From assembly GCA_000004695.1 (NCBI GenBank), contig CM000151.3, positions 1,312,001 through 1,376,000 of the forward strand: a stretch of DNA of 64,000 nucleotides, given 5' to 3'. The stretch comes from Dictyostelium discoideum. Taxonomy: Eukaryota. The translations under genes were made by a program, and so were the position numbers. Positions 14,566 through 58,700 of the stretch are shown piece after piece. Every line of letters starts with the position of its first letter. The first letter of the stretch is position 1. Under the pieces are notes generated by a model. That model did no database searches. It was given only the letters and a program-made list of their open reading frames with translations, and was not told where the DNA came from.

Positions 14566-19617
<5,052 letters not shown>

Positions 19618-26746: not shown

Positions 26747-28380
26747 ATGAAGTTTGATACAACTAAATATTATCTACTTTTAGAACTACCAGTTGATTGT
26801 TCACAAGATGATATAAAAAGATCATACCGTGCCTTAGCGTTAAGATATCATCCAGGTAAGTGTCAAGACATATATATATATATATATATATATAGATATT
26901 TAAATAAACCCAGCAGTCGCACCCACACCCACACACAAACTTACACAAACACCATTTTACACAAGGTTTATGATGATTTTTTTTTTTTTTTTTTTTTTAA
27001 TATTATAATACAACTCAAGTAAAGTAGTGGTATTAATAAACACAACTATATATATTGTTGTTTTGTAATTTAAAAATATTTTTTAGATAGAAATCCAGAT
27101 CCAACAGCAGCAGAAGCATTTAAAGAAATAGCAGAAGCATATGAAGTATTATCAGATCCAGAAAGAAGAAAATTGTATGATCAATATGGTGCAGAAGGTT
27201 TGAAGTTCTTTGAGAACGGAGCATTTGGTGAAGACGCAGCATATATTGCAAAGTTGATGGGATCATTGAAATTGATAGCATGTACAGGGTTTTTAATATT
27301 ATTGATAGCGATCCTTTTCCCAATATTCATAGTTGTCAAGACCAAAGGCGCCGTCGATTGGTCATGGGCAAAAGTATTTTCACCAGCATGGATCATCATG
27401 TCATTGGTTATAGTGTTTACAGCATTTTTGGCAATCCTTTCAAAGAAATTAACATTTTTCATTTGGGCAGCACACAATCTATTCATTATGACATTCATGG
27501 GTTTATTAGTATCGAAATTGGACGCAACCACTTACACAGCTTCATCCATGTTATGGTCAGAGGTTTTCATACCAATCTATGCATTGATTGTAACAAGTAT
27601 CCTACAGAAATATGAAATTTTCTCAAGAGAACACTATGAAAAACGTTTTTCATCACCAGAACATTTAGATACTTGTACAAATTTTGGTTTGGGTCATCCA
27701 GGTTTTATTTTACGTAAATTGTTGAGAGATTTAGTTGCAAGTTGGTTCTTTGTTTTCCTAATGTTAAAATTGGATCATGTAGTTGAATGGAATTGGTGGA
27801 TAAATTCAATTCCTGTCTTTTTTTACATCATTTTCTATTTGGTTTTAATGGCATTAGATAATAGTTCAAAAATGAACAATTTATCAATGGATGAAGATGA
27901 AAGAGCCTCAAATGAAAGTGTTAATAGTTTCTTATATTGTATTTTCATTTTCTTAATGATTCCAGTTATCTTATTTATTTCTTTATTAGCTGCTCATATC
28001 TCTGCTGATAGATTTGCAATTGCTAATGTATTCATTCCAATTTTTATTGTTTTAGGGTAATTATTTTATAATTTTTTTTCAAAATACATTTTAACATAAA
28101 AATATAATACTAATTAATTTATTTTTATTTTTATTATTATTATTATTATCATTATTATTATTATTACAATTATTATAGTCTTTTAACTTGTGCATATTGT
28201 ATTTTTGCATGTTGTGCTTTAGCTGCAGCAAAGGGACAAGGAATGGAAGATTTCCCAGGTGGTTCACCAACTCAAAATATCGCTTCAATCATTAACAGTA
28301 GAATGTTAAGACCACAAAAATTCTTGGAAGCTCAACACTTACCAACAACCAGTACCTCTGTTGGTGTAGAAAATGTTTAA
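26747..28380 (+). CDS. J-domain (DnaJ) protein with a polytopic membrane domain, about 426 aa, three exons
   Basis: Exons approx 26747..26855, 27087..28056, 28179..28380. Exon 1 ends ..RYHPG (donor CCAG|GTAAGT); exon 2 begins AT AGA AAT CCA GAT, so the spliced product reads [35 protein letters not shown], a canonical J domain whose HPD tripeptide is completed by splicing. About seven hydrophobic helices follow ([32 protein letters not shown], and others). Intron 2 donor GG|GTAATT, acceptor ATTATAG|. Final exon encodes ..[33 protein letters not shown]. Confidence 0.7.
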
Positions 28381-28571: not shown

Positions 28572-31500
28572 TTATTTTGTTGTTGTAGTTGTTGTAGTTG
28601 TAGTTGTAGTTGTAGTTGATTGAAATGGTTTAGTTTTTTTTAAATTATCTTGAGAATTAAAATCAATTTTTCTTTTAATTTGGAGTGGTGGTTTGTTAAT
28701 AGTTGGTTTTTGTTGTTGTGATTGTTGATTTGAAACTGTTTGCAATTGTTCTAATTTTGAAGGTGATGAAGATGAAATTATATTAATTTTACTATTACTA
28801 ACTTCTTCTAATGGTTTCTTAATAGGTAAATTATGATTAACAGTACTGTTAATACTATTTAATTTTGATTCCAAAGTTCTAATCTTTTTCTCATCGATTT
28901 TATTCTTTTTAATTAATTGTTCATAATTTTCAAAAAGTGTTGTTAATTCATCGTCTTTATCCAAGAGAGATTGTTGAAGTTGTTTGATTATTAGATCTTT
29001 TGAGTCATCTTGTTGAACATTATTGATTTGTTCCAATTGAATAGTTGAGATTTTCTCTTGTAATTGTTGGTTTTCATTGGTTGAATTTTCGAGTTTTTGT
29101 TGTAATTGATCGGATTGTTTTTGGAGATCATTTGATTTCTCAATGGATTCATTGTATTGTTGTTGTTTTTCATCAAATTTAGATTTCAATTGATGAATGG
29201 ATTCGATAGATAATTGTTTTTCATCTTGTAATTTTTGAATCTCCAAAGTGTTTATATTGAATTGTTGTTGTAAATGATTGACTTGTTGTTGTAATGTTGA
29301 AATTTTTTCAATGGATTCTTGATTTTGTAATTGTTGTTCCTCCAAATTTGATTTTAATTGTAAATTTGAATCGGATTGTGATTGTTTATCATCTTGTAAT
29401 TTTTGAATCACCAATATATTTAAATCAAATTCTTGTTTTAATTTATTTAATTCTTGTTTTGATTGTGAAAGTTTTTCAAGTGATTCATCGTATTGTTGTT
29501 GTTTTTCATCAAATTTAGATTTCAATTGATGAGTTGATTGAATTGAAGATTGTTTTTCATCTTGATGTTGTTGTTGAATTAATTCTCTTTCTTTTAAATA
29601 ATTTTCAGTTTGTTGAGAATGTAAATGTTCAAGTTGGGAAATTGATTGTTCCAATTGTTTAATTACCAAAGTATCTTTATCATTCTCTTTTCTCAAATGA
29701 GTATTTGATTCCTTTTCAAATTTAATTTCTTGTTCCAATTGATCCAATTTACATTGTAAGTTAGAGTTTTCATTAGTTTTTTCTTGTAAATTTTGAGTTA
29801 CTTCTTTAAATTCTTGAATCATTTCATCGAGTTTCGATTTAATATCATCAGATTTTGATTGATTTTCAAATGAATTTTGTTTTTCAAGTTCAACATTTTC
29901 CTTTAATTGAGTGATCATATCATTTTGAAGTTTATTTCTTTCCAATTCATTGGATAAATCCAAGAGTAATTGTTGATTCTTTGATTTTAACTCTGTTACA
30001 TGGTTTGATAATTGATCGATTGAACTATCAGAATTCTTTTTATTTGAATTAAATAATTGAATATCTTGTTTTAATGTTGAGATTTCATCTTGTTTTTCAA
30101 AGAGTTGTTGTTTTAATCTATCAAATTCCAATTGTAATTGATTCTTTTCATCTATTAATTCTTGATAATTTGATTGAGAATCATTGATTTCCATTTGATA
30201 ATCATTGATTTTCTTATTTAATTCCAATAAGGTTGAATTCAATGTAGAGACACCATCTTGTTTATCAGAGAGTACCTGTTTCAATTGATCTAATTCCAAT
30301 TGTAATTGATTCTTTTCATTTTGAATCACTTTAATATTGTTATCATATTCTTTAATATCTGATTGATAATTGGATATTTTTCTATTCAATTCAAATTCAA
30401 TTGAATTTAATAAAGTGATATCATCATGTTGTTCAGAGATTCTTTGTTTCAATTGATCCAATTCCAATTGTAATTGATTCTTTTCATTTTGTAAACTTTG
30501 AACATTTTCATTTGATTCAGTGATTTGTGATTGATAATCAGTGATGGTTGAATTCAATTGTAAGAGGTTATCATTCAATTTAGAGGTTTCATCTTGAAGA
30601 TCATTACACTTGACTAATGATTCTTTTATTGATTGATTACGTTGTGAAATTGTTTCTTCAAGTTTAATAATTTCATCTTTATCAATTTGTAAATCAATTT
30701 GTAATTGTTGTATCTTATAATCACTAGTTGAAAGATCCTGTTGTAATTGTTGAATTTTATGATTGTTTTTATCGATTTCCATCTCTTGTAATTGGATACA
30801 AGATTGTTTTTCATCTATCAACATTTTAGATTGTTCAATTTGTTCTTGTAAATCTTGATTATATTGTGAGCTTAATGATTGAATTTTCAATTCAAACTCT
30901 GTTAATTGATTTTGATTTTCTTCAATTTTTAATTCAAGTTTTGAAATGATTTCATTGGATTCATTTAGTTGACATTGTAATTGTGATTTCAAATCAGAGG
31001 TTTCATTTAGGGAATCTTGTAAGAGTGAAATTTGATTTTGAGAATTTTGAAGATCCAATGAATTTGAGGATTGTAATTGTTGAATTTGTTCCAATTGATC
31101 ATTGGATTGATCATTCAATTTGGATAATTTTAAAGAGAGAGATTGGCAAGTCTCTTGATATTGTTGTTTTTCATTTGATAATTCCTTGATTTCCAATTGT
31201 AATTCAATTACAGTCTTTTCAAATTGTGAAATTGAAAGTTTACATTCTTGAACCAATTCTTTACTTTCAGATAATTGTTGTTTCAATTGTTCTATTTGAT
31301 TATTGTAAAAGTTTAAATCATCAGATTGATTTTGATTGATTTGTTTGGAATTTTCTAAATCCATTTTCAAAGTTTGACATTTATATCTCTCTTCATCCAA
31401 TAGAATTGTGAGTTCACCTTGATGATTGGATTGTTCCTCATTGACTCGTTTAACTTGTTCGATTGATTTCTCTAATTGAGTTGTATATAGTTTTGATTCA

Positions 31501-34005
31501 TTAAATAAATTTATGGATTGTTGTAAATCTTGTTTCAAATTAAAGAGTTGATTTTGTTCAACTTGATAACGTTGATTTAATTCATCGAAATTTGATTTAC
31601 CAAGATTAATCTTGTCAAACAGTTGATCAATATCAATTGAATTTTTTTGTAATTGTTCTTGTTGTCTATTGAGATCATCTTGTTTCAATTGTAATTCACT
31701 AGTTAGTTGATCAATTGATTCCAGGGATTGATTATATTGGTCATCCTTTTCTGAAAGTTTTTTATTTAATTCAATCACTTGTAATGATAAAGAATGAATA
31801 GATTGTTGTTTTTTAATCGATTCATCATTTAATTGAACAAGTTTTTCATTTAATGAATTAATATCAACTGATTGATTATCTATTGTAGTTAAATGTTGAT
31901 TAATTGTTAATTGATTTTGTTGAATGGTTTGTTTCAATTGTTGAGTTTTTACTTGAAATTCTTGAATTGTTCTCTCTTTATTTGATAGTTCTTGGTCTTT
32001 TTCAGGTATAGTAATAGTTGATAATTGATTTAATTGTAATTTTATTGCTTCAATCTCTGTTGAGAGAGAATTACTTTCATCTTGTAATGATTTAATAGTT
32101 GATTTTAATTGATTAATAGTTTGACAATCCTCTCTAATTGAAGATAATAATTGTTGATTCTCTTGATTCTTTTGATTATTTATTTTATTTAACTCATTAA
32201 TTTGTTCAGAATAATCATTTATTAAACAATTTAGTGAATCCTTTTCAGAGTTTATATTTACAATTGTATGATTTAAAGTTGTAATCTTTTCTTGAAATTT
32301 ATTTAAACTTTCAGATTGATCTAATTTCATTTGTTCAATTTGATTCTCTTTCTCTTTTAGTTGATCTTGATGAGTTGAATTTAAATTCTCAATTATTGAA
32401 TATAATGATTCAAGTTCTTTTTTATTAGTTGTTAATTTATCTTGATGATTTGAGATTAAAAGTATTGAGTTTTCAAGTTTAATCTTTAAATCATTGTTTT
32501 CATTAGTGATTGTATTGATTTGGTCATTGGAATCCGATTGTTTATCATTTAATGATTGTAAATCTGAATTTAAATTATCAATTTCCTTTTGTTTATCAAT
32601 GATTTCATTGATTCTTTGAGTTAATAATGATTGTTGATTTGAATTTCTTTCAATTTGATCATCTAATTTCTTTTTTAATTCATTAAAATCAAAAGAGAGT
32701 TGTTGTTTTTCAATTTGATATTCATTTGAAATATTATTAAATTCTAAATTCAATTTATTATAATTTAATTTTGAAAGTGATAAATCATCTAATAACTTTG
32801 AATAATTATTTGATTTAGTGTCAAGTTGTGATTTTAAATCTTTTAGATCTTTATCTTGTTCAGTGATTAAAATTTGATAATCATTATTCTCCTTTGAGAT
32901 TTTATCAATCAATGATTTCGATTCGGTTCTTTCATTCTTTAATTTTTCATTTATTTCTTTATTCAATTGAGACACTGATTTCAGATTCTCTTGATATTCA
33001 GAGATTAACGATTGGTAACGTTCATTATCATCATCAGAGGTTGATTGTAAATCCGATACTTGGATTTGTAAATCCATAATTAAAATTTCAGATTCTTTAA
33101 GTTTCTCTTGCTCACTCTTTAGTTTATCACTTACAAATTCAAGTTTCTCCTCCAACTCTGTCATTATCAAAGTGGATGTTGATATCTCCTCGCTTTGGAT
33201 ATCAATGATTTGCTGATTCTTTTCATTATCTGCATTGAATTGATGTTGTAATTCTCTCAACTCTTTTTCATATTGCTGTTGTTTATCTCGTAATTGTTGT
33301 ATCATGATATCCTTATTTTCAATCTTACTCCTTTGATTGGACTCTTGCTCTTTGCTATCAGTTAATTGTTCTTGTAATTGTTGGATTTCAATCTCCATTT
33401 TCCCCATCTCCTTATTAGATTGCAATAAATATGATTTATTCTCTTTATTGGAATTCTCTAAATGCACTATCCTAACTTCTAAATTTGATTTATCACACCT
33501 TAATTTATCAGTTTCATTTATAAGTTTCTCTAATTTCTCTGTTTGTATTTCAATTTGTTTATTTGTTTTATCTTCAAATTCTCTCATCTCTTTTTGATGT
33601 TGTTTCTCCAAATTCCCTTTTTCAACTTTTAATTGATCAATTAATTCACAAACTTTTTGATGATTCGTTTTAGTTTGTTTTAATATTTCTTGTAATTTTT
33701 TAATTTCAATTTGACCATTATTAAATTTTTCTTCAACTAATTTTAACTAATAATAATAATAAAAAAAAATTAATAATTTTATTATTATATTATTATTATT
33801 ATTATTTTTTAAATATATATATATATATACATACTTCAGATAAAATTTTATTTTTTTCATTCTTTAATTCTGTTGCTGTTTTTTGAGTAACTTTTAAAAC
33901 ATCAGCTTGATTATCAAATTGTTGAGCTTTTTGTTTTATTCGTTTCTTTAAATCTTCATTTTCATCTTCAAGATGTTTTATCTTTTCATGTTGGTCTTTA
34001 TTCAT
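28572..34005 (-). CDS. Large coiled-coil protein (about 1780 aa), two exons
   Basis: Exon 1 33835..34005 (MNKDQHEKIKHLEDENEDLKKRIKQ...KILSE; donor GAA|GTATGT). Exon 2 28572..33746 (acceptor ATTATTAG|TTAAAATTAGTT; LKLVEEKFNNGQIEIKKLQ...). Heptad-rich Q/E/K/L sequence throughout with internal repeats (NEKNQLQLELDQLKQ three times). C-terminus ends in polyT ([15 protein letters not shown]). No motor or actin-binding domain recognised. Confidence 0.7.
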
Positions 34006-34615
34006 CTATGTATGTATTTATTATTTATTTAATTAAAAAAAAAAAAAAAATGTTATATAATATAATTTTTAATTTTTTTTAATGGATAAATAATTTATTT
34101 GTTAAGGTATGTTTAAAATAATATAATAAACATTTTTTTTTTCATTTTTTTTTTTAATTTTTATTTTTTTTTATGGAAAACTAAACATAACAGCTTTTTT
34201 TTTTTTTGGATTTTTTGGCGCAAAAAATGTTTGTATTGTTTTTTTTTAAAAAAAAGATATTTTGGGGAAAATTGGAAACAAAAAAAATAAAAATATAAAT
34301 AAAAAATAATCGATCAAAATTTTTTCTAAAAATATATGTTTTAATGAAAATATGTTTTTTTTTTTTTTTTTTTTTTTATTGGGTAGTATTTATAACTTTC
34401 AATAAAGATATATAAGGTTCAATTTTTAATTTTGAGAAAGAATCTTTAAATAATTGTTTGTTTTCCTTTGATAATTCTTTATTGAAATAAAATTCTGATG
34501 CTATAATAATAAACAATTTTTCATTTGTTTGAATTTTTGATGCAAATTCAGATTCCCTATAAAAATTTAATAAAATTAGTAAAATTTTTTTTTTTTTTAT
34601 AAATTAAATAAATAA

Positions 34616-34646
<31 letters not shown>

Positions 34647-34648
<2 letters not shown>

Positions 34649-37600
34649 ATAATACAAACAATAATTTAAAAGATCTTTTTGGTGAAGAAGTTAAAAATAA
34701 ATAAGTTAAAGCCCATAAACAATGAGTTGGATTTTGAATTTGGAAAAAATTTTGTAAACAAATGATAATCCAATAGTTGATTAAATGTTGATTTGTATTT
34801 TCAGAAGTATCATTTTCAACCAAGAAATCGAAAACCTTTGAAATGATTTGACACATTAATTTTGAGTTTGTTTTACTTTGTTTTAAAAATTCACCTAAAA
34901 TAAAGGATAAAACTTGATCGACTGAAGGGAATAAATCTACGATTACAACTGGTAATACCTCTGATAATACATGAGATTCGTATGAGAAATGAGAGACTAA
35001 ACGAATCTTATCGAATAACATCTTAACTTTTTCCATATTATTTACACGTGAGAATTTCTGTCTATCCAATGATGATAATGGATCACCACCACCACCACCA
35101 TTGATTAATGAATTACCACCACTACCACTATAATTATCATCCATAATAAAAGAGGACATAACCGAGTCCAATGCAGAGTTTAATGGTGATTCTATAGAAC
35201 TTGAACTGAATGAACCTTCAAATGCTGTCAATGAATTAACACCACCACTACCAATGGATGAGATGGATGATTTAGTGAACGATGGTGAATTGATACCAGT
35301 TTCATCACCGGTATAGATACAAGTAACCATTAAACCCAATGCAAGTAATGATCTAATTGGATTCTCTGATGGTAATGATTTCAAAGAGAAATGAGAGATC
35401 AATTCACGTTGTGAATGACTTAATGAAAATGAAACCAATAAACGATCCAAACCTCTGAAAACACCATAAACGATTGGTACAGGTGTGGATTGTTGTTGAC
35501 CCAATTGAATACATGTAGTAACGGCACGTTTTGTAAATAATGTTTCCTCTGCTTCTCTACTATACTGTTCAATCATTAAAAACATTGTTGCCAATACACG
35601 TAATGTCAATGATACCGGTGGGAAAGGTACACTTGATAGTCTAGTTGGTATCCAACGGAAAAGGAATTGTAGTAATGAACCTTGGATATATTTGTTGACT
35701 TTACCTTCCAATAGATAAAGTATGCCATCCAATGCACTAACTTGTAAAGAGATATTTTGATGATCCAATGCCGATTTCAACATTTCAAATATACCAACAC
35801 TATGAGCATTACTATCGCCAACATTTGGTGGTGTTTGTAAAATTGCAATACCTTTACAAATACCTAAAATCAAATGTTGTTTCAAAAGGAAATCATCAAT
35901 TTCATCTTGAGCATAAATTGTTGTAAAAGTTTTAAACATCCATATCACTTGTTCACGATTGAATAAATCTGATAACAATACTGTCGATTTCAATATATCT
36001 TTCTTTAACATTGGTGGACACATTGGGTTAACCAAGAAACTTTCAAAAGATTCTAAAAGTTTTTGAATGATTGGTGTGAAATTTACACCAATGAAATAAG
36101 GAGTTTTAAATAGACGTAAATCTGATAAGGAGATTTGATCGGAGCCAAATTGATTTGAAGAGAATGAACGTTCAATATTGAAATGATAAGCTGATAGAGA
36201 GGAGGAGGACATATTTTGATGATTACCACTGCTTTCACCAAACATTGACGAACTTGAGCTAACCGATTCAATGGCACCACCCAATGGTAGCTCTGATTGT
36301 GGCATATCGCCATAAATGGTTGAAAGAAGATGATTTAATTTCTTACCAGTTGGAGTATTTAAAAACATTAAATCCTTTTCACGTGGAATATGATTATAGG
36401 TTGACTTTGGTATGGTAGAGGTTTCCAATAGATTCACTTGACTATTAACACCAGTGACTTCAAAACACACTTTAATAATCATTGTAGCCATACCAGATAG
36501 AGACAAACATTTGCACTCCTCTGTAATTTCATCGCTACCCATTTCAGCGTCACCCAAAGGTGAAACGAAAATTGGTTCCAACATTTCCCAAATCTGTTTA
36601 AATTTGAATTCATCATCGATATCAACGAAATGAATGAAACTGACCAAAGCTTTAATATTTTGTTCAGGTGAAACATTACTTGAAAATATTGGACAATTTG
36701 GAATGATACCACCACCAAATTCATCCTCTGATGAAGTTGATACGGTTGGATAAATGAAATCGAATGCTTTGGTTGACAAGGGTATGATTGCACGTATAAA
36801 ACTATCGAATATTAATTGACCAATATGTGATCCGGGCATTGGGGTATAGGATTTGACATTGGTTAACAAAGAAACCAAGAATTTAATCATTTCATTTGAT
36901 TGAGTCAATGAGATTTGAGTTGGATCTTGTGAAAAATTCTCTTCCAATTCTCTTTGACCTGAAATGTAACCAAAATGAGGTCTAATCACCAAACAATACA
37001 GTTTATAAAGACAAAGTAACAAAGAACACCATTCACTATCATCTGTTATAGTTAGAATGGAAGCGGTACTCTTTAGAATGATTGAACGGGATAACTCCAA
37101 AACCAATTTAAAATCATATGGATTAATAATTTCAGCACGCCATCTTCTAAAGCTTTCAATGAAAGCCCAAGTTGAAACTTTAAGTAATTTTGATTCACAA
37201 AGTTCGCCCAATCCAAATTTATTGATGAAATTTGATAAACATCTAGTGGTCTCTCTTAATTCATCCCAAACTGAATCCGATAGAAATGGTGGACCACCCT
37301 TCAATGGATCAGTACCAATTTCACCTGCCAACCCTAATAAAGTATCAACTTTTTTCAATAAATAAGCTTGAATTTCATCTTGAAACTCTAAACTATAAAC
37401 AGAAGAAATAAACGCTGGTAATAATGTACCATCCAATGATTTAGATTCTAATAAACTAATAGTAGCATCTTTATCAATTTGTGATAATATTGAAATATTA
37501 TTAAAACTATGTTGATTTAAATTATTTGAATAATATCTTGATTTAATTAATTCAACAAAATAATCCCATGGTACAGTTTTTAAATCTGAAATTTGATTAT

Positions 37601-39149
37601 TTTTTTTAATTGTTTCAATTTGTAATTGAATTAATTTTTCAATATTATTTCCTTCTTCTTCTTCTTTTACTTTTTCTTTTTCTTTTTCTTTTTCTTCTTC
37701 TTCTTTTTCAATTATATTATTATTATTATTATTATTATTATTTGTTAATTCTTTTTCTTTTAATTTTTCAATTACATTATTATGAGTTGGTGTTATACCT
37801 TGATAAGCTGAAGATGGTGATAAATTTTTAATTAATTTTAAGAATAAAGATTGAACTGATTGATTTGTAGTTGATTTTACAAAATTTGACATGAAAATTT
37901 GATAAAGTTCTTGAATGATCTCTAAAGAATTTTGTGGACCATAAGTTTCAATTAAATTATTAATATTTAAATTTAAGATACGTTCCCCTGAAACTTGTAA
38001 ACTAATATCATCAGTTTGTAAGAAATTAACGATTAACAATTCTAAAGTCTCTCTATTTGCTGGTAAATAAGATAAAAGACGTAATAGTTTTTGTTTTTTT
38101 CTAAGATCCAATGAATTTGAAACTCTAGAGAATATTTTCACCAAATGTTGTGTAAATATTTCAATATATTGATTTTGATCAGAATTTGAACCACCTTTAA
38201 CTAGGAATTCAATCAACTTCTTTACAGTGGATTCATTAATTAATAAAACAATCTTATCTAAAAATGTTTCACTTAATTCAATATTTTGTGATTTCAATAC
38301 AACAATCGATTGACAATATAATAAAAATATGATATGATGAGTTAAAAAGTGCTCACAACCACAACTTTGCCAATTATTTGATAATGCATATTGTTTCCAA
38401 ACCAAATCTGCACCTTCGATAACTTGTTGATTTGGTAATCTACCTAATAACAATAATAGCTTAACAGCATGGATTGATGTACTTGTACCACCATATGATA
38501 ATAAACTTGTTGTTATCTCTTGAATGATTGTACCATTATCTAATGCCAATATACCTTTTAATGAATCCATAAACAAGTTAATCGTTGAGGAACTACCACC
38601 AACAGTTGGTGAAAGTAATAATGAAGATGATGGTTGTTTCATTAATGATGATCCCATTGCCATTGTTGTTACTGTTATTGTTGACGATGATGATGATGAC
38701 AATGGTGATACACTACCACTGCCAGTAGTAGTATTGGTAGCACCAAAATTTGGACTATTTGATAATGATTGTGCAGAAATATGTGGTACTAAATTCTTAT
38801 TGAAAAATATTGAACTATAATATAAAAGATGATTTATCAATTGAGTGAATAATACATTCTTTGGTTTATACAATGAAAATACTGATACAGCATTACGAAT
38901 TAATTTCAATAATAAAGTTGAAATGATTGCTGCACTTGGACCTGGTTGATGTTTATTATCATGATTCGATAAAAATCTTGATTGTCTTGCAGCTGAAATT
39001 CTAGCTTCTTCTGGTAATTTACAACCTGTTCTTAATAATACTAATAATGGTGGTAACCATCTTAATTCATATGCTTCTAAAATACTTTCACGTAATAATA
39101 ATATACGTTTTCTAATTAATGGATCACTTGGTGTTGTTGTGGTTGTATT

Positions 39150-39181
<32 letters not shown>

Positions 39182-39692
39182 ACGATGATGATGATGGTGA
39201 GGTTGCAGTTGATGATGACGATGACGATGATGATGTTGATTTATTTACAAATTGTGGTGAAACTGATAATAAAGCATCAGCCCATCTTGCAGCAGATAAA
39301 GATGAACTATGAAGTTTATCAATTAAAACATATAATCTTTCAACCTCTTCAATTGAATTAATAATGAAAAATGGTGAATCACCAAGTGATAAATTTGTAA
39401 ATAATTGATGAGAAATTTGTTGAGAGAATTTTTGATGTAATGTACTATTTGGTTGAACGATTGTAACAATTAAAATTAAAATATCAATTGTTTGAGAATA
39501 TTGTAAATTTGATAATAAAAAACTTAAAAATCGTTCTCTAAAATCTGTATCTGGATATTTATCATTTGGATCATATAAATATCTAACAAAAGAATGACAA
39601 TTTTCAATAATAGTTGGTATTGTATAACTATATGGGTGTGAACTATTATTACCAATTACTGTACTATTATTTAATGACTGACTAGAATTTGA

Positions 39693-39761
<69 letters not shown>

Positions 39762-42700
39762 TGATGAAATATTTGGTGTTGAATTTAATGATTGGCTTTT
39801 ATTTTGATTAGTTTGTTGTTGTTGTTGTGGTGGTGGTTGGAAAAATAATTTTTTAATATCATCAATACTAACTGAAGAATCTGGGAATAATTTTCTATAA
39901 ATAAACATTGAACCTAATAAATCATAACTATAAGATAATACTTGATTTGGTTTTGATAATAGACAATGAGTTTCTTTTAATTCTTCAATGAAATAAGTTG
40001 GGAAATGATTTTCTTTATCGAATAATGATAAGTCTAAACCAAATTTACTTAATTTACTAAGCATCAATAGGATAGCAATTTTCAATTCATGTGAATGTGT
40101 AGTTTGATATTCAATCATTGAGCCAATGATTAATGGTTCAAATAATTTGAAATTTAATTTTCTATCTTCATTGGAAATGATACGATTAATCTCTGAATTA
40201 CTATAACTATAATTAATATTATGACTTGATGGTACTTCATTGATGAAATCATAATGTTGTTTAAGATTTGGTGTACCAAAGGTTAACAATGATGAAAACA
40301 CTGATCTAGAATTTAAAAACATTTCATCATGTGAATTACTACTACTTGAATGTGATTCAATTGATCTTGGTTCATATTGTTTCAATGAGGATGAAGATGA
40401 ATTAATACCACCACTGCCACCACCACCACCGCCACCAGTACTAATGAAACCACCACCAATATTCAAATCTCTTGATTTTTGTGATAATGAACTAATTGAT
40501 ACAATTGGTGTTGGTTTCATAGTTACTAAAAATAATTCATTTATACATTTAATTACTGATACAGGTTCTTGTTCGAAATGAGTCGTTAAATAACCAATGA
40601 TCTCTTCTGTATAGGGTAATATAGTTTTACCAGCACATTTTAACATTACTGATAAAGTTTCAAAACATGCTTGTCTAAGTTGAGAAAATCTATCAATACC
40701 AAAAATTGTGATTGAATTAATACGAGCTGTTAAAAGTTTTGAATAAAGTTTGATATAATGTATCGAATGAGTGAAAGAACCTAAATGAGTTGGTGCCTTG
40801 AGTAGTGGTGAATTTACATGAATACCACTTGGATTTGATTTAACCTCTTTCAAAGGTGGTGTAGGTCTAAACTGAATGATATTAGTTGCAATATTGATAA
40901 TACGTACTATATGGCGCAATACATTATGACAATAGGTGCCAAGTACATTCTCAGCACCCCTACTAAGATAACCCAATATCTCAATGATATCAATATGAAC
41001 ATCGAAATCTGTTGCAACCCAAGTCAAACCAACCCTATCCAAAGCCAATGGTAAAATATCGCCAACAAATGATAACATTGGATTTGCTAAAACCGAAGAA
41101 AGTGTACGACACTGTTCTGGTGTATCGGGTGGGAATGAATAGGTTTTACAAATTAAATTTAAAGCACCATAACAACCACGTATCTTATCATCTGGATGTG
41201 GATTTGAAAGTTGATTAACCAATAAACCAATAACATGTGAAAGATTTGCAAATATCTTTCTCTTTCTTAATACAGTATTCTCATAATCTTGAACATCAAA
41301 TGTCTCTCTAACCTTACTAGATATACCCTTCATTGAATGACGTTCCAATGGTGCTGTGAATACAAGTTTTGGTATAACTCTAACCAATGATTTACCTGCA
41401 CTATTTCTAACTCTAAAATCATTATCACTTAATTGTTCAATTAAAAAATCTAAAACTTTTGATTGAATTGGTATTGCAACTGCGCCACCAGTTTCTGAAT
41501 TATTCTTATTATTATTACTATTATTGCTATTATTATTATTTTCATTAATTTTTATTGATGAAGTTGAAATTGATAAATTTGGACCATTTATAACGACATT
41601 CATTACATTTGATTTTTGTTGAATATTTTGTTCAAGATATTCAATTACAATATAGTCAATCATTGATAAAGTTTCTAGAATTTCCAATTTAACTAACCAA
41701 TAAGTTGAACTACTAACACAAAGTAAATGACGTAATGTTACCAATGCCCAATCAGAGAATTTACTTTGTGATAGAATTGGTAAACATTCACTAATACCTG
41801 TACAAGCTAATTTCGCAGTTATCGAACTTGAATCCATTAATGCACGTAATAAAAATATTAATAAAGTTGGAATTGATAGATTATCTTCTAGCAATGCTAT
41901 ATTGGTTGGATAGATTTGATTACTGGTTATATGATCGGTTTCAAGATAACCTCTAATTAAACAACCAATCATCAATGCTGTACCTCCTCTAAGTAATGGA
42001 TCACTATCATTTAAATAATATAAAAACTCTTCTTTAGGTTCTAAACTAAATGTATGATTTGATACACCTGTTGTACTATTAATTCCACTCATTGTTGATG
42101 ATGTTAAATTATGTTGTTGTTGTTGTTGTTGCTGTTGTTGTTGTTGTTGTTGTTGTTGCTGTTGTTGTTGAGTAATTGGTGTAAACAATTTAAAATTTAA
42201 ATCAGAAGGTGAAATATTTAATAAATAATCTCTACAAATATGATCTTCTGCTGATGTTACTGTATTTGAATCAATAGTTGAAGGTTGATGTTTAAAAAAT
42301 TCATCATTAAATAATTTTGGAAAGAATTTTACAGATTGTGCTAAACAATTTAAAACTACAGCTTTTAAACTAACTCTAATCGATGATTGTTGATTAAAAC
42401 ATAAATGTCTAAGTTGAGCAATCACTTCTCTAACCAATGGTTTTGGCCAACTATATTCATAAGGTCCAAATGTTACCAATAATTGTTGTAATAACTCTAA
42501 ACTTAATCCAACAATATTATGATCATATGGTTCACCATCAATTGGTACTTGAATATATTTTAATATAAAATGTACGAAAAATTGAATCTTTAATGAAAAT
42601 CCATCTAAAATTTTAATATCATTTGCTTTTTTTTTTTAAAAAAAAAAAAATAATTAGTATATTATGTAAAAAATAAATTAATAAATTAATAAATAAATTA

Positions 42701-43925
42701 ATACTTACATGATAATTCTTCAGCTAATTTAATTAATTGTAAATAAGAGAATAAAACACCTAATATTTTTGAATTTTGTAAAGTATTTGTATTACTACTT
42801 GCAGGTATACATGATGCTGAAGTAATTGAAGAGATTGGTGGAGAATTTGGAAAAGTGAAATTGTATAGAAATTCAATTGTAAATTCAAACAATGGTCTTG
42901 GATGATATCTACAAATGGATGTTATGGATAGGGAGGCAGCACGACGCACTGCTGCAGATGGTTGTTGAAGATTTCTACTGAATAGATCAATCAATTGATG
43001 AACTTCGTTCTCCTTTAAGTAGGGTATTAAAATTTTGGAGATGTTCTCCATCGAGATTGAAATACTCTCCTGTAATGACTCATCCTCAATGATACTCAAC
43101 AAACTATTGATTGGTGGTACCAATGATAATATATACTTTCTACATTTCGATGGTCTAATAAAACTACAAATCTCTCCAAACTTTATCAATGCAATACGTT
43201 GTGATTTCAATGGAAATGGTTTGGATAATATTTGATTTGCTGTATTAAATATTGAATTTGCATTACCATTACTATTATTCGTATTATTTCCTGGTGTCGT
43301 ATTTCCACTATTATTATTACTACTACTATTACTATTACTATTACTATTACTATTACTATTACTACTAAAATTATTATATAAATTATTTGATGAATTTGAT
43401 GTTGAATGTGATGGTGATTGAGTCGATGGTGATTGTTGGTAATTTGGTGTGGTTGGTACTGATGGTGTCACTGAATTTTGTGATAAATGATCTGTTAAAT
43501 TGGTTGATAATCTCTTTTCATTATTATGTTGATGTGGTTTACCTTTTAAAACTTTAAATAATTCAAATAATATTCTTTCATGATATGAATATACTAAAAT
43601 CTAAAATAAATAATAATAATAATTAGAAATCAATAAAAAACAATGATCAATTATGATGATTGAAATAATAACTTACTTTTATAGTTCTATTTAAACTTTC
43701 TTCAGCAACAGAATAAACATTTAAATCTTTATCACCATGTGCTCTTAAGAGTAATGAGATTGCAATTGATAAAAATCTTGGAAAATCTGCTGTATTTCTA
43801 AGTGATGGTGCACATATTTGCTCTGAAATCGTTCTACATGCTTCAATCTTTTCTTTCCTTAAATTTTGATCCTCTGTATCTATTGGTGATGCTGATAATA
43901 TATCTAATCCACGAATAAGATCCAT
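34647..43925 (-). CDS. htt: Huntingtin orthologue (about 3030-3040 aa as modelled), three exons
   Basis: Exon 1 43677..43925: MDLIRGLDILSASPIDTEDQNLRKEKIEACRTISEQICAPSLRNTADFPRFLSIAISLLLRAHGDKDLNVYSVAEESLNRTIK aligns with the human HTT N-terminal HEAT region (..[54 protein letters not shown]). Exon 2 42709..43600: ..RIALIKFGEICSFIRPSKCRKYILSLVP versus human [28 protein letters not shown]. Exon 3 34647..about 42625 (alternative acceptor at 42604): ITAKLACTGISECLP, YWLVKLEILETLSMIDY and DFRVRNSAGKSLVRVIPKLVF match human VTCKLACTAVRNCV, YWLVRTELLETLAEIDF and [21 protein letters not shown]. A polyQ of about 21 Q at 42110..42170 falls in exon 3, not at the extreme N-terminus. Confidence 0.85.
42110..42170. 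repeat. (CAA/CAG)n polyQ-encoding tract inside htt exon 3
   Basis: Plus-strand (TTG)n with two CTG interruptions; it encodes ..[25 protein letters not shown] on the minus strand. Confidence 0.9.
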
Positions 43926-44602
43926 CTTTTTTTTTTATAAAAAAAAATCTATCTATCTATATTTTGTGTATTATATGTTTATATTATAGGTGTATTATTG
44001 TGTGCTTTATATACGAATATAATTATTTGGTATTTATATAATTATTATTATTATTATCTACTATTATTTTTGCTGTGGTGTGTGAGAGTGTGTGTTGTGG
44101 AATAAAATAAAATGGGTGGTGGAAAATTGAGGATGAAAGGGTGGTATTTAAATATATTTAAAAAAAAAAAAACAATAAATAAATAAATAAATAAAAAATT
44201 TAAATTTTAGTATGTCTATAGACAAAATATCTATATAATACTATTGTTTAACCAAACAAATAATATACGTGTGATAGTTTGGGAAAGACAAAAAAAAAAA
44301 AAAATTTTTAAAAAAAAAATTAAAAAAAAAAAGGGAAAAAAAAGAAATTTTTTTGCCCCAAGAGTATTTCAATTTTTTTAATTAAAAAAAAAAAAATTAA
44401 AAAAATTAAAAAAAAAAAAAATAATTAAAAAAAAAATTAAAAAAAAAAAAAAATATTTATAAAAAAAAAAAAAAAAAAAAAAAGTTAGCACCTTTATTGC
44501 AATTTATTTAATAACTGTAGTAATAAACATATTAAAAATTACTATTATAAAATAATTTAATAATAATATTATAATAATAATAATAATAAAATAATAATAA
44601 TA

Positions 44603-46011: not shown

Positions 46012-46601
46012 TTAACTTTGCAAAGGTAAAATTTCTTCAGTTGCAAATATTTCAATTTCAATAGTTATTGAATCATTTATCAAAAATCCATTTGCATCAT
46101 TTAAAAGGTCAGCTCTTTTAATGAATTGAGAGGAACCATAACCAGCTGAACCATTTTCAGAATCATATTTTTGACAACCTCTCTTTTCATAAACTTCATC
46201 AGAAATTTGATTATTTACTAAATGAATATAATAATTTACAATGATAGATTTATCATCTTGAGTTTTGTATAAAAAGATTGAACAATAATTTAACTTCTTT
46301 TTACCAAAAGGGAACCATTTTAAAAAGAATGTTGAATTACCAATCTTAAATAATGGTGATTTGATATAATCCTTTGATATACCCTGTTGTTCTTGTTCAG
46401 AGTAATTTGAAATTACCCATTTATTTTTATAAACTGCTTGTGGTAATGATCCACCATTTGGACTATCACTCATTTGAACATTATTAATATTATTATTATT
46501 ATTATTAATAAAATGACTATTACTATTATTATTTTGTTGAGATTGTTGGGATTGTTGTTGTTGTTGAGATTGTTGTTGTTGTTGAGATTGTTGTTGTTGA
46601 G

Positions 46602-46668
<67 letters not shown>

Positions 46669-47377
46669 TTGTTGTTGTTTTTGAATTAAAATTGAATCAT
46701 TTAATTCTTTAAATAAAATTTCAAGTTCGGTAATTTTTTTATTTTGACCATTTAAAAGTAAACAGAATTCAGTATTTTTTAATTCTAATTCATTAATTTT
46801 TAAATCTTGTTGATTTAAAATATTTGAAATGAATTGATGATGATTATCACCCTCTGTTAAATGTTGAGATAATTTTGATCTCCTAATCATTGCATTACAA
46901 CCACCTTTACTATATCTACATTGAATGATTGTTTCTGGACAAAACGATTTCTGATGTTGGTTAATCTCTTTCTTTTTAAATGGTAAATGACAATCTAAAC
47001 ATTTTATCGTAATCTCTTGACACCAATTGGCATTATGTGATTCCTTATTGATCTTATTTATAATGTCACCACAATACTCACAAGATATCTTTACGTATGG
47101 ACATATTAAATCGTGTTGTTCCTTTGTATTCTTCCTAAAATCAGGACATTGTGTAAACTCTTGGAATGGTAATTTACTAAATTCTTCACAATTCTTACAA
47201 CTTATAAATCCATATTGACATTCCTTTAAGTGTTCCTCCAATTCATTGATTTGAATTATCTCTTTACATCCATTAACTTCATCTTTTATAAAATCAATTG
47301 TATCAAAAAAACTATTTGGACAATGAATCTAAAAAAAATGAATAATATTAGAATATATATATATATAAGTATGTATT

Positions 47378-47409
<32 letters not shown>

Positions 47410-47900
47410 GTTTATTTAAAATTATTTACTTTAAAAGTTGTAAATTTTTGAGTTACTAATAAATTACTTGATAAACTTTCAATTGATTCAACATCAACAC
47501 CACATTGAATGCAATTTTTTTTCTTTTCTAAATGTTTTTCCCAACAGTTTAGACAAGTTGTATAATGACCATTTTTACATTGAACTGCTTTGAATTTATC
47601 TGCATGAAAACTATTAACCAATAAATCAGAACATATTGTACAAAAGTATTTCTTTGATATGTTCTCTTTATCAACTACTAAGTTACTAATTGGTATATCT
47701 AATTGATTATTAATTTCATTTTTATTATTACTATTATTTTTATTATTATTATTGTGATTGTTATTGTTATTAATATTATTATTGTTATTGTTATTGTTAT
47801 TGTTGCTGTTGCTATTGTTATTGTTGTTATTGTTGTTGTTGCTGTTATTATTGGTAAAGCTTGATTGTTCAATGGTAATATCTTCTAATTCAAACTCCAT
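46012..47900 (-). CDS. TRAF-like protein 2 (RING, TRAF zinc fingers, coiled coil with polyQ, MATH), about 596 aa
   Basis: Exon 1 47430..47900 (Asn-rich N-terminus, RING CTICSDLLVNSFHADKFKAVQCKNGHYTTCLNCWEKHLEKKKNCIQC; donor AAA|GTAAAT). A 101-bp intron. Exon 2 46012..47328 (acceptor TTTTTTTTAG|ATTCATTGTCC; IHCPNSFFD..CKEIIQINELEEHLKECQYGFISCKNCEEF...). A polyQ of about 60 residues at 46535..46680. C-terminal MATH-like YKNKWVISNYSEQ. Same two-exon plan and orientation as TRAF-like 1. Confidence 0.75.
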
Positions 47901-49016: not shown

Positions 49017-49033
49017 ATGACAATTTCTTTGAA

Positions 49034-49098
<65 letters not shown>

Positions 49099-49610
49099 GT
49101 GAAGATGAAAAATTATTTTGGAAAGTTTTTCATAATAAATTTTTATTTTTTAAAATTATAAATAGTATAGAAGAATTAAAATTTGATTTTCCAAATATTT
49201 CAACCTATTATGATTTAAATATTAGAAAGAAATTTAAGAATATTAATGATTTAGGTTCAATGGCATTATATAAACAATATTCAATATTAAAAGATAAATT
49301 AAAACATAACGATTATATTCATTTAAGTCCAAGTTCAATAAGAGAATTTATAAGATATTGTGATGATAAATCAATAATCTCACAAGTTTATTCAAAATTT
49401 AAATTAGAGTTCAATTTACTAGTTAACCCAATTTCAATTGCATTTTCAAGTAATAATATTCAAGCTTTAGATTTATTCATTTTCAATTTTAATTTACAAA
49501 TTGATAAATCATCATTTCAAGATATTATCGAATCAAAAAATTCTCAATTACAAAAATATATTTTAAATTTAATAATTAATAATAATAATTCAAATAATAA
49601 TAATAATTCA

Positions 49611-49679
<69 letters not shown>

Positions 49680-52559
49680 TCAAATAAGATTTTAATTAAA
49701 TTACCAAAATTAAAAAGATTATTAAACTTATATTTTTGTGGTGAATCAATTGATAATGAAGTTTTGAAATTAATTATAAATTTATATAAAATTGATAGTT
49801 TAAAAGAATTAATTGATGAAAATGAAATTGAAAGTTTTGAAAAAATTAATATAAAAAAATTTATTGAAATAAATGATATTTTCATTCAAAAGGTTTTAGT
49901 AGATTTAAAAATTGTTGAAAAATCAAAAGAAACTTTTAATTTTGGTGGTGATGGTAGTGGTGGTGATTATTTAAATGATAAAACTATTGAAGAACTTTTA
50001 ATTATGATTGAAATTATTTATAAAATTGGTAAAGGATTAAGTGATTCTGATGTAAATAATTTAATGAATACAAAAATTATTAATAGGGCATCATCATCAT
50101 TGGAGAGTAAAGAGAGTTTTAAACAGTTAAAGAAATTAATAGTTTTAGAGAGTAATTCATATTATTTAGAATTCTTTGAAACTTATGGTGAACCTGTATT
50201 AAATCAAGGTTATAATTATTATACCAATTTTTATAATTATTCTTTTCAAACTTTTAATCCACAAGGACTTCAATCTTTAATTGATTCAGCATTTGATTAT
50301 ACTCATTGGATTTATCCAATTTCAAAAAAAGATGATCCTATTAATTTTAAGAAATTAATTAAAATAGTCTTAAATGATCAACAAAGAGTTGTTGATTTTT
50401 TTAAATTATTTTATAATCAATCTAAATCTAATAATTTTAAATTTTTAAAACTACAACAACAACCACCACCACCACAAGAAGGAGAAAAAGAAGAAACCAT
50501 TGAAATAAAATGTAGAAATATAAAAGAAATATTTGATATAGTGGTTTCTTTATTAAATAGAAATATATGGGAGCAGTTAATGAATATTAGAGGTTTTCCA
50601 ATATCATTACTAACTTCAATACCACAAAATATAAGTAAAAATAAAAGAAAGAAATTTTCATTTGAAGATTCAATTTTTTATATTGAAAAAATTATAAAAT
50701 CAATTGAAATCATTTCAATCACTCATAAAAGACAATTATCAATATTACCATTCAATTTTAAAACTACAAAACATATTGATTACTTTTTCAAAACTATTGA
50801 AATTTTCACTTTTAAATGTAAATATTTAGATTTCAATAATGATCAAGAATTAATTGATTATTTTTGTGATAATATTCCAATATCAGCTATACCACTTTTA
50901 TTTGATGATGATGATGATGATGATAATATAACTACCGACAGTCAAAATATTCTTAAACAAATCTTAATTAATAAACAATTTAAGTATTGGTTTAAATTAT
51001 GTAATATTTTAGAAATTAAAAAGTTTGAATCATTAATTTATAATTTAAGTTCAAAAAGAAATTGGATTAAAAAAGATATTGAAACTGAAAAAATATCACT
51101 TTTATTAAAGTTTTTATTTGAACAATCAGAATTTTCAAAATTTTTTAATAAAAATAAAAGTAATGGTTCTAGTAGTGGTAGTAGTACAGAAAATGATTTA
51201 AATGAATCAATTATTATTGAATTTTTTCAAGATGTTATTTTTCATTTAATTGATAGGGAAATTAAAATTTCACAACTTGATACATTAATTAATATTGATT
51301 TTAATTATCAACCATTTGTATCATTCCTATTTGCATTAACTTCAATTGGGTATGATTATTTTGAAATTTCATTCATAATATTAAATCAAATTCAAAATAA
51401 ATTTTCAATAATTTCAAATCAGTTAACGTCAATTGATATTTTTGAAAGAATATCAGAAGAAATTTATCAAGATGAAGATTATAATCAAGATATTTATGAT
51501 GAAGAACATTTAATTTCATCAATTGATATGTGTTGGTTAATAAATAGTTTCCTAATGATTATACCAAGTGATTTTTATAAAGCTTGCTCCTCTTTATTTT
51601 CAAGACTTTTCTTATTTCTTTCAAGATGTAAAGATATTAATTTGGGAATATTGGATTCTATTAGATTACTATTAGAGAATAAATCAATTGAATTAAATAT
51701 TGAACCAAAAAAATTAATTGATATTTATCTTTCAATAAAGTCAATTAAGTTATCAGAATATCAAAAAAATAGAACCATTAAAGAAGGAACAGTTGATTTT
51801 AACTTTAAACTTGATTTTATTAAAAATTCAAGCGTTGAAATACTATTGGAATTATTAATTAGTGATAATATAAATCAACTATATAATAATAGTGAAATAG
51901 TTGTACGATATTATTCTATCACTCAAGATTTAATTTATTTATTACAATTGAATGAAATCAATTTATATTATAGGGTTTTGGATTTACATTATTATTTTAT
52001 TGGTAAAAACAATGGTCGTTTAAATGAATCTGATATTAAATATATAGAATCTGCTATTTTAAAAAGCCTTCAACTTTCAATTAAACTATTTAGATCAGAA
52101 AGACAACTTGTTAGATTCATTGAAAATTGTAATATTACTATCGAAAATATACTATATCATTCTTTAATGAATAATAGATTGGATTTCATTAAGTTTTTAA
52201 ATGATAATTACCACCCAATTCAACCAATAAAATATACTTCAATATTTCTTATATTTTCTTCAAATCATTTGGATATTGCAAAGTATTTACTTTCTAATCT
52301 TAAAGATAAAATTCTTATTGAAAAAATTGAATGTAAAACTCTTTTCAATCTTTTATTTAGAGGTGGTTTTTTAGAAATGTTTCAACTTTTATTAGACCAC
52401 TATCCTAATCTTATTAGTTTAGATCAAGATTCTTTCAATTTTGATGAATTTATATCTTTTCAAATTTGTAAACCTGCTATATTATACTACTATAATAATT
52501 TACCAATTAAGTGTAAAGTTTTAAAAAAGGTACTAGAAGAGTCTATTTTAAAACAATAA
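49017..52559 (+). CDS. Hypothetical 1180-aa Asn/Lys/Ile-rich protein (possible weak ankyrin-like C-terminal repeats)
   Basis: Single long ORF with two polyN tracts (49040..49090, 49590..49680), a D7 acidic run, and C-terminal segments such as HSLMNNRLDFIKFLNDNYHP / SSNHLDIAKYLLSNLK / LLFRGGFLEMFQLLLDHYPNLISLD. No confidently recognisable catalytic domain. Confidence 0.55.
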
Positions 52560-53572: not shown

Positions 53573-53643
53573 GGGGAGATCCGAGAATCGAACTCAGGAC
53601 GCTACCACCCAAAGGTAGCATTATACCACTTAACTAATCTCCC
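53573..53643 (-). tRNA. tRNA-Pro (anticodon UGG), 71 nt, no intron
   Basis: Reverse complement of 53573..53643: GGGAGAT TA GTTA AGTGGTA TAAT G CTACC TTTGGGT GGTAG CGTC CTGAG TTCGATT CTCGG ATCTCCC C. 7-bp acceptor stem, D stem GTTA/TAAT (one G-U), anticodon loop TTTGGGT (U33, anticodon TGG, G37), T arm CTGAG/TTCGATT/CTCGG, discriminator C. A-box and B-box-like sequences are present. Confidence 0.85.
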
Positions 53644-55730: not shown

Positions 55731-58700
55731 TTATTTTCTTGGTGGAATGATTGGTTTTTTAGTAAGATTGAGATCTGATGTTTGTGGTGAATGTGGTGGT
55801 GTTGCAGTTGGAGTTGTTGTATTTGTTGTTGGTGGAAATGGAACAGGTGAATTATTATTAATATTATTATTATTATTTACAGCAACATTAACAGCACTAC
55901 CTCCACGTGGTGGTAATGGCATAACTCTTGGTTTACCAGTTGGAGGTGTTGTAAAATCAGTATTGCTATTATTATTATTATTATTGGCAGATGATGGTAA
56001 TGAAAGATCATCTTTAGTTATATTATTATTATTAGTATTATTTTTTACAGAAGAAGGTACAAAAGAGGAATGTGATGTTGATGGTACAAATGTTGATGCA
56101 GATCTTGCACTATTATTTGGTGCTGCTTGTTTCAAATTTGATAATTTTGATGGGAAAGCAATTGGTTTAGCTGGTTGGTTTGTTGTTGTTGTAGTTGTTG
56201 TTGTTGTTGAAGAATTTGAAGTATTATTATTATTTATTAATGTTGATACAGGAGCAGGTGCTGTAAATGAACCTGGTTTAGGTAAGGGTCTTGTTGTTTT
56301 TGTTGGTACAGTATTATTATTTTCATTTTGTTGTGTTATTACAGGTTGAGAAGGAGTAGGAGTAGTGGTTGGTGTTACAGATAATGGTCTTTGTTGTCTT
56401 GATGGAATTGGTGGTGCTTGTTCAGTTGTGGCAGGTTGTTGTTGTTGTGGGGATGATGTTTGATTTGAATTTGTTATAAATGTTTTCTTTATAGTTGAAG
56501 TTGGTCTTGGTTTTGCAATTGGTGTTTGTGATGGTAATGGTGTTGAAGCTGAATCAACAATTGTTGGTGGTTCATCAATAACAACTGTAGTATTAGTAGT
56601 AGTGGTAGTAGGTGTAATTGTTGCAGAAGATTTTGATTTTGGTGGTGGAGGTGGTAATGGTTTTGAAGGAATTGCATGAACTGGTTTTGATTGTTGTTGT
56701 TGTTGTTGTAATGCACCAGCAGCAGTTTGAGTTCTATGTAATGATTTTGGAGAATCAGAAGAGATACCATTTGAAGAAGGATTAGTAGTTGCAATTGTAC
56801 TTCTTTTAATATGATCTAAAACTTTATCAGCATTTCTAGAATATTCTTCACGATGTGGTTTAATTAATTCATCCAAATCAGTGAACCATTCCATTTTTTG
56901 TTCGTAAGAATCTGCAACCAATGTGAATCTTCTACCGGTGGTACCAGGTTGACTAATTTCAAAGGTATTACAAAATGAACTACCTCTATTCTCCTCGCCA
57001 TCAACATTTGTAGAGGCAATGATGAATAGAGTTTCGAGACGAATTGATTTCTTATCTTTTTGAGTTCTCATAATAATATCATTAAAGAGATAATAATGCA
57101 TTCTACCAGAGATTTTATCTTTTTCCTCGGTTAATTCACCAAAAGTTGCTTCACGAATCAAGTAACGAGTTGGAGTGAAGAATACAAATTTCTCGGGTGC
57201 TTGTAATTTTTCATGAATTTTATACATTTTTTGATGAATTTCAGCTTTTCTTTTACTTTCATTAACAGAGAGAACCACCTCTTGAATTTCAGTGTATGCT
57301 TTCTCTAGATTCGCTAAATCCGGATGACCTTCACAACTATTCTTTATGAGTTCTCTTAGTAGTAATGGATATTTACAAAGACGTTGAACTGGTTTAATTA
57401 GAAAACTCTCTAAATTACATTGTCTACATTCTGTACTTGCTTGTTTCTCCTCTAGAAACTGTTTAAATGATGGTATCTTTTTACTACAACGTGCAATATG
57501 GTCGGCTGAAATGGTCTGATTTGCACAATAACCACTATAGATTTTCAAATATTTAAAGAAATAGATAAAACATGTACCAACTGTATGATTTGGTTTCTCA
57601 TCTGGTGCTTTTTGTAAGAGGTCACTTAACAACTCTTTATTTACATTCAATAGTAATTGAATATTTGAAAATATTATTGAAATATCTTTATCGGGTATAA
57701 TCTTTGACTCCTTTAATGGTGTCAATATAAAATTTACAATTATATTTAAATCTGCTATATAATCTTTCTCTGTATTAATAATTTCATTAATTACCATGTT
57801 TCTCATTTTATTTTCACCTTCTTCTTTCATTACATTTTGATGTATAACTTGTGCAAATGCTCTTGTAACTTTAATTACAACTTCTCTCTTTGTACCACCA
57901 TTTGGTGATGATATAACTGATGATCCTGATGATAATTCTGTTTTATCACCAACTAAATTATTTGTTGAATTATTATTATTATTATTTGTTGTTGTAGTAG
58001 TTGTACCACTATCTGTTCCACCACCAACATTTATATTCTCTGTAGATGGTGATGTATTTAATCCTCCACTACCTGTTGTTGTTGTAGTTGTTGTTATATT
58101 ACTTAAATCACTTGATGATATTGATTTTTCAATACCTTCACTATTAATTGGTGTTGGTGTTGATGTTCTACTACCATTACTATTATTATTATTATTTGTT
58201 GTTTCATTATTTTCAATATTTGAATCTGTTGTATTATTCTGTATTATATTTGCATCTTCTGAACTTATACTATTTCTATCTGTTGTATTATTCGCTAAAT
58301 TATTACTACTACTATTATTATTATTATTACTCTCTATAAATGATTTACTTGGTGATGAATCAATTTGAACTGGTGAAGTTGATCTTTCAATAATTAATGA
58401 ATTTGATTTTTTAACAGAGAATATCTTTGAAATTACAGATGGTTCTCTAGTTAATTGTACTTTAGTTGGTGTTGAATCTTTATCTTTTTGTTCAGTAATA
58501 TCTTCTTTTTCTTTTTCTTTTTCTTTTTGTTCCCTTTTAGATTTTTCTTTTTCTTCTTTTAATTTCTCTTTTTCTTCTTTTTGTTTTTGTTTTTCCATTT
58601 CTAAACGTTCCTTTTCATCTTTAATCTTTTGTTCTTTTTCTTCTTTTTGTTTTTGTTTTTCCATTTCTAAACGTTCTTTCTCATCTTTAATCTTTTGTTC

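Follow-up and report, generated by a model that had tools for sequence, protein, structure and literature searches.

The huntingtin gene of Dictyostelium discoideum: a four-exon model and its terminal exon

The hd/htt locus

The stretch of DNA analysed here, which we call 'the window', comprises 64,000 nucleotides (nt) from Dictyostelium discoideum (assembly GCA_000004695.1, contig CM000151.3, positions 1,312,001 to 1,376,000 of the forward strand) and has a G+C content of about 25% throughout. On its minus strand lies an open frame of 2610 codons (34647..42479), with two shorter frames 5' of it, at 42698..43471 and 43647..43925. This region is, almost certainly, the single-copy huntingtin gene of the organism (hd/htt, DDB_G0272344), which occupies the minus strand, is divided into four exons, and specifies a product of 3095 amino acids (aa). 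The corresponding UniProt entry is presumably Q76P24. An initial annotation, made from the sequence alone, had recognized a huntingtin orthologue at this place and had assigned it three exons, a 3' limit at 34647, and a length of 3030–3040 aa, short of the roughly 3095 aa that it gave as the reported length. We can reproduce the three-exon length—3039 aa with an exon-3 acceptor at 42625, or 3032 aa with one at 42604—and the reported length that it gave proves to be the right one. The gene has a fourth exon, and its corrected coding sequence (CDS) spans 34376..43925 (Table 1). With the acceptor at 42625 this CDS amounts to 9288 nt, contains no internal stop, and translates to exactly 3095 aa, in keeping with the publications. 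The gene is already known: a publication of 2011 described it, with its length, its division into four exons and the unusual position of its polyglutamine (polyQ) tract, and knockouts have been the subject of later studies.

What the three-exon model lacks is the end of the gene. Exon 3 finishes with AAA TTA TT|GTTTGTATTATAA..., and what follows is a 103-nt stretch that includes the motif TACTAAT and ends in TTTTTATAG, beyond which the next frame runs to a TAA at 34376. The TAA at 34647-34649 that had been taken for the end of the gene is a read-through stop within intron 3, instead. Splicing from 34660 to 34556 is in phase 2 and unites TT with G to complete a leucine codon; three read-through residues (FVL) are dropped and 59 are gained, for a net increase of 56 aa. 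The three-exon model falls 56 aa short, then, because a 3'-terminal exon after a 103-nt intron was missed. The deficit is an annotation artefact: the phase-2 donor 34660|GT was read through into intron 3. Eight in-frame GT..AG pairings can connect exon 3 to the terminal frame, and only one of these, 34659/34557, keeps the alignment with orthologues gapless; the other seven were rejected, for each deletes conserved residues. Like the other two introns of htt, the one so defined is short and extremely AT-rich, with 3.9% G+C against 20–30% in the exons.

The peptide encoded by exon 4 is conserved in all seven of the dictyostelid huntingtins aligned with MAFFT. That of D. purpureum is near-identical and aligns without gaps (SFKLLESEFASKIQTNEKLF), and the peptide is recognisable in the six other dictyostelids, too. 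The conservation extends to animals. The last 148 residues of the protein align with residues 2988-3125, of 3137, of mammalian HTT (E = 5e-11), and since this alignment runs across the exon 3/4 junction, exon 4 must encode the conserved extreme C-terminus of huntingtin. At the D. purpureum locus, introns are present at all three of the D. discoideum positions and in the same phases, and the phase-2 intron splits the same leucine codon, the one preceding ESEFASKIQ.

The published descriptions agree. According to Myre et al. 2011 (PMC3084204), hd is a single-copy gene of four exons that encodes a protein of 3,095 aa with a 19-residue polyQ tract at residue 533, and a second account (PMC8004120) likewise gives 3095 aa and 19 triplets. 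We mapped onto the window the 19 primers printed in the former paper and in its Tables S1 and S2. All but one of them (18/19) match exactly and uniquely, and the remaining primer has a single mismatch; the locus in the window is therefore the published one. The promoter forward primer falls at 44488..44520 and begins 595 bp 5' of the ATG, in agreement with the paper, where the '595 bp 5' to hd ORF' (ORF, open reading frame) is described as driving expression of green fluorescent protein in all cell types (PMC3084204). Published constructs start at ATG 43925, for primer P3-HtNF and the forward primer of the 5' knockout arm both begin exactly there, and the knockout arms map within exon 2. Primer HtE3-E4_R corresponds to 34527..34556 and its 3' end falls exactly where exon 4 begins, on the first base, so that the published exon 4 coincides with the exon 4 found here. 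Sharing as they do four exons, 3095 aa, 19 glutamines from residue 533, and a 595-bp promoter, the published hd/htt and the gene in the window are taken to be one and the same.

Table 1. Parts of the hd/htt gene, with coordinates counted from the first letter of the window
Feature	Coordinates	Strand	Description
5' flank	43926..44520	-	595 bp; hd promoter in Myre et al.; lies between hd and the divergent mitochondrial-carrier gene
Exon 1	43677..43925	-	249 nt, 83 codons, phase 0; begins MDLIRGLDIL at ATG 43925
Intron 1	43601..43676	-	76 nt; GTAAGT...TTTTAG; 14.5% G+C
Exon 2	42709..43600	-	892 nt; last base is 1 nt into a codon
Intron 2	42626..42708	-	83 nt; GTAAGT...AAAAAG; 6% G+C
Segment between the two candidate exon-3 acceptors	42605..42625	-	21 nt, coding: CA that completes Ser, NDIKIL, and the first base of D
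Exon 3	34660..42625	-	7966 nt; most of the protein: Htt_N-HEAT, central region, Htt_C-HEAT
PolyQ tract	42114..42170	-	19 Gln, residues 533-551, in exon 3
Intron 3	34557..34659	-	103 nt; GTTTGT...TACTAAT...TATAG; 3.9% G+C; phase 2
Exon 4	34376..34556	-	181 nt: 1 nt that completes Leu, 59 codons, TAA; ESEFASKIQTNEKLF...LLKVINTTQ

Huntingtin homology and the polyQ tract

Three huntingtin domains of Pfam are found in the protein, each far above its gathering cut-off: Htt_N-HEAT_1 (PF20926; 113.8 bits against 31.2), Htt_N-HEAT (PF12372; 115.2 bits against 26.2) and Htt_C-HEAT (PF20927; 124 bits against 25.3, in two stretches). The first of these matches is encoded by exon 2, which also holds a low-complexity stretch rich in serine and asparagine. 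When the PDB was searched, ten huntingtin sequences matched, the best being 6EZ8 (E = 1.3e-76, over six stretches); the sole match of any other kind, to NDC1 at 2e-05, was one of low complexity. A homology search of the protein database returned 16 matches, all of them huntingtins or huntingtin-domain proteins, and among these were seven from dictyostelids, at 51-74% identity, as well as metazoan ones.

The resemblance to the mammalian protein runs almost from end to end. BLASTP against mammalian HTT gives seven collinear blocks that take residues 23-3092 of the Dictyostelium protein onto residues 114-3129, beginning with a block that pairs 23-105 with 114-198 and finishing with one that pairs 2911-3092 with 2950-3129. 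The motifs by which the initial annotation had identified the family (KLACT / YWLV..E.LET / RVR...SL.R..PKL) align with mammalian residues 767-962 at 31% identity (E = 3e-29), and the similarity in the HEAT blocks that it had claimed is thus borne out by formal alignment. Mammalian HTT, represented by the human protein in 6EZ8, 6X9O and other PDB entries, is of similar size, is matched by the same N- and C-terminal HEAT models, and has both these motif blocks and the extreme C-terminus in common with the amoeba protein; local identity between the two is approximately 26-41%. The genes differ in exon count: the amoeba gene has four exons, whereas human HTT has 67. The D. purpureum orthologue (DICPUDRAFT_95859) is 2927 aa long and 74% identical over its full length. 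The 168 aa by which it is shorter are missing mainly from low-complexity tracts, and it lacks a long polyQ at the equivalent site.

The polyQ tract lies several hundred residues into the protein and within exon 3, just as the initial annotation described it; the number of glutamines is 19, rather than the 21 or so that had been counted, and they are encoded by 17 CAA codons and 2 CAG codons, the 4th and the 13th. In vertebrates the polyQ belongs to an N-terminal module, N17 followed by polyQ and a proline-rich region, and the Dictyostelium protein does not have this. It starts MDLIRGLDIL, and its residue 23 already aligns with mammalian residue 114, so the vertebrate module has no counterpart here. 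The N17-polyQ-proline region is absent from non-vertebrate huntingtins in general (PMC8004120), and its absence therefore has no bearing on family membership.

The tract occurs, instead, between two conserved blocks, SPSDLNFKLF and EPKEEFL.YL.D.DPLLRG, joined by a linker that no two species share in either length or composition. At the site of the polyQ, D. purpureum has just QQ...EQQQQ, and the other species have no run of glutamines. In the mammalian protein the linker that carries the Dictyostelium tract (from residue 533, mostly CAA) corresponds to residues ~301-767. This linker, which is of low complexity and variable between lineages, separates the first N-terminal HEAT block from the main N-HEAT domain, and the placing of the 19 glutamines within it points to an independent homopolymer insertion in Dictyostelium. 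Judged by sequence, the tract appears to be a homopolymer expansion specific to the lineage, of a sort that abounds in this genome, and probably not a positional homologue of the disease tract. The lack of positional homology between the two was noted in the 2011 paper as well (PMC3084204).

Alternative readings of the splice sites

Two in-frame acceptors, at 42625 and 42604, precede exon 3, both of them where the initial annotation reported them. The upstream one is the real start of the exon. Were the main mRNA to use the downstream acceptor, the protein would be 3088 aa long, would carry Y in place of SNDIKILD, and would have its polyQ start at residue 526. The reading frame is kept in this arrangement, and TTTTAG|A at 42604 comes closer to the acceptor of intron 1 (TATTTATTTTAG) than does AAAAAG|C at 42625. 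But the residues NDIKILD that it removes align with SDIKILD in D. purpureum, IDIKILD in P. violaceum and SDPKILD in T. lacteum (MAFFT); the matching 21 nt are nearly identical in D. purpureum, where the intron itself does not align; and the published length of 3095 aa and polyQ start at 533 both need 42625. The segment 42605..42625 is coding, and exon 3 therefore begins at 42625. Acceptor 42604 was rejected on the conservation of NDIKILD in orthologues and on the published polyQ position, and we regard its use in the main mRNA as very improbable. Nor can the choice of acceptor account for the residues missing from the three-exon model, as had been proposed, because that choice shifts the length by just 7 aa and 42625, the right acceptor, is the one that gives the longer product. 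An extra micro-exon near 42600-43680, the next cause suggested, finds no space. The exon 2/3 junction aligns in all seven dictyostelid orthologues, and the exon 1/2 junction (...NRTIK|ILVYSYHER) aligns without gaps in six of them, with a gap in the seventh model, P0006; a micro-exon was rejected on this evidence, and another start codon on the use of ATG 43925 in published constructs. The last cause suggested, strain differences in the (AAT)n/(CAA)n repeats, gains some credence from the many homopolymer tracts in the gene, which could vary from strain to strain, yet exon 4 alone brings the protein to 3095 aa, and the polyQ to 533, with every repeat unchanged. A three-exon gene that ends at 34647, and that loses its 56 or so aa in any of these ways, has next to no chance of being correct. 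The junction that had been missed, 34659/34557, lies outside both of the regions (42600..42710 and 43600..43680) in which the initial annotation advised that junctions be inspected.

A different possibility is that a biologically meaningful share of the transcripts keeps intron 3, giving rise to a 3039-aa isoform that ends ...SFKLLFVL and lacks the last conserved C-terminal segment. The donor of this intron, GTTTGT, is weaker than those of introns 1 and 2, and read-through adds just three codons before the stop, so that a stable truncated product is conceivable. When Myre et al. examined exons 1 to 4 by reverse transcription polymerase chain reaction (RT-PCR) with exon-specific primers, however, no alternative splicing was detected, and their exon 3-exon 4 primers revealed no alternative forms during either growth or development (PMC3084204). 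The exon-4 peptide is conserved, moreover, from dictyostelids to mammals, which argues that the full-length C-terminus is the functional product. We think it most unlikely that retention occurs on this scale. Somewhat easier to entertain, although still improbable, is that the tandem acceptors 42625/42604 or the weak intron-3 donor see some low-level or regulated use, which would yield minor huntingtin isoforms. One such form would lack NDIKILD, or one would be truncated at ...KLLFVL, and either could have escaped detection by RT-PCR on agarose gels.

Certain observations do weigh against the four-exon hd/htt gene as we have drawn it. The donor of intron 3 is less canonical than the GTAAGT with which introns 1 and 2 begin. 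The Htt_bridge domain of Pfam (PF20925) was not matched at E <= 0.01, although the ~1300 residues between the HEAT matches could hold a divergent bridge; this domain is missing from the precomputed domain lists of all seven dictyostelid orthologues, and is present in most of the metazoan matches. The one primer that does not match perfectly, HtE2-E3_R (42440..42466), is mismatched at its 3'-terminal base, which is G in the primer and C in the window. The gap between the knockout arms (42846..43119) measures 274 bp, compared with 278 bp in the paper, and the polyQ tract has two CAG codons where Myre et al. 2011 mention a single CAG, a discrepancy due either to a difference between strains (AX3 and the sequenced strain) or to loose wording in the paper. 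No match to the exact 3095-aa sequence was found in the protein collection, a result that is uninformative since the collection does not seem to include the D. discoideum protein; the best match there was the D. purpureum orthologue, at 74% identity, and no D. discoideum entry was returned. The agreement with the published protein is one of length, exon number, polyQ length and polyQ position, not residue by residue. And the orthologous proteins compared are themselves gene predictions. These residual discrepancies leave the conclusion unaffected.

Neighbouring genes and the meaning of the lost exon

Upstream of htt and divergent from it, at 44603..~45700 on the plus strand, is a multi-exon gene of the mitochondrial-carrier family (Mito_carr). 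Its ATG is 677 bp from that of htt, whereas Myre et al. 2011 speak of '608 bp'; primer F608 lies 595 bp 5' of the ATG, and 608 is therefore not the full intergenic length. D. purpureum, too, has a mitochondrial-carrier gene divergently upstream of htt (1155..2310 of locus L001), and the pairing of the two genes is thus conserved. At the other end of htt, an AATAAA hexamer at 34375..34380 on the minus strand overlaps the stop codon (CAA TAA AAA...) and gives way to a run of about 20 A residues; from its sequence, this hexamer is a plausible polyadenylation signal. The next gene downstream, at 28572..34005 on the same strand, opens with a short exon, from ATG 34005 to a donor near 33835, that leads to an ORF of 1679 codons in which Q, E, K, N and L abound and 'EKNQLQLELDQLKQ' segments recur many times in nearly the same form. 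It has no Pfam match, and has the look of a gene for a coiled-coil protein. Here the two species part ways, for the downstream neighbour in D. purpureum is a polyketide synthase gene, instead.

Other genes are scattered across the remainder of the window. Three tandem copies of a ComC-like gene occupy 612..3601, 6559..10042 and 11558..14485 on the plus strand, in what looks like a local gene triplication. Each has a long ORF with ComC beta-sandwich, EGF and supersandwich domains (Pfam E ~1e-73), preceded by an ORF of ~190-220 aa to which it is presumably joined by an intron; the first of these shorter ORFs, the sole one scanned, carries an LRR_ComC domain. A protein with TRAF-type zinc-finger and MATH domains is encoded at 46012..47900 (minus strand). 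About 60 residues in its interior form a glutamine-rich tract, a long pure run of Q and then Q runs interrupted by S, and the asparagine-rich ORF upstream, at 47412..47900, is probably its first exon. Also present are a homologue of Tmemb_185A (transmembrane Fragile-X-F; 27173..28060, plus strand), a RhoGEF-domain protein (55731..59168, minus strand), and the sole transfer RNA gene in the window, for tRNA-Pro(TGG), at 53573..53643 on the minus strand. Two large ORFs, at 14566..19617 (minus) and 49017..52559 (plus), have no Pfam matches.

The htt product is predicted to be a HEAT-repeat solenoid of 3095 aa and may act, as metazoan huntingtin does, as a large HEAT-repeat scaffold; going by the literature, this is the most likely mechanism. 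Loss of huntingtin is described there as having pleiotropic effects, with defects in the cytoskeleton, the contractile vacuole, streaming, aggregation, spore formation and basal autophagy. Impairment of basal autophagy is reported in a 2026 paper (PMC12954983).

For the biology of the organism, the significance of these results is small, and their value is as a check on the initial scan of the sequence. The exon lost from the three-exon model encodes the last conserved part of the C-terminal region of huntingtin. In genomes that are very AT-rich and have short introns, a non-canonical donor followed within a few codons by an in-frame stop can mimic the end of a gene, and a conserved terminal exon can be lost as a result.

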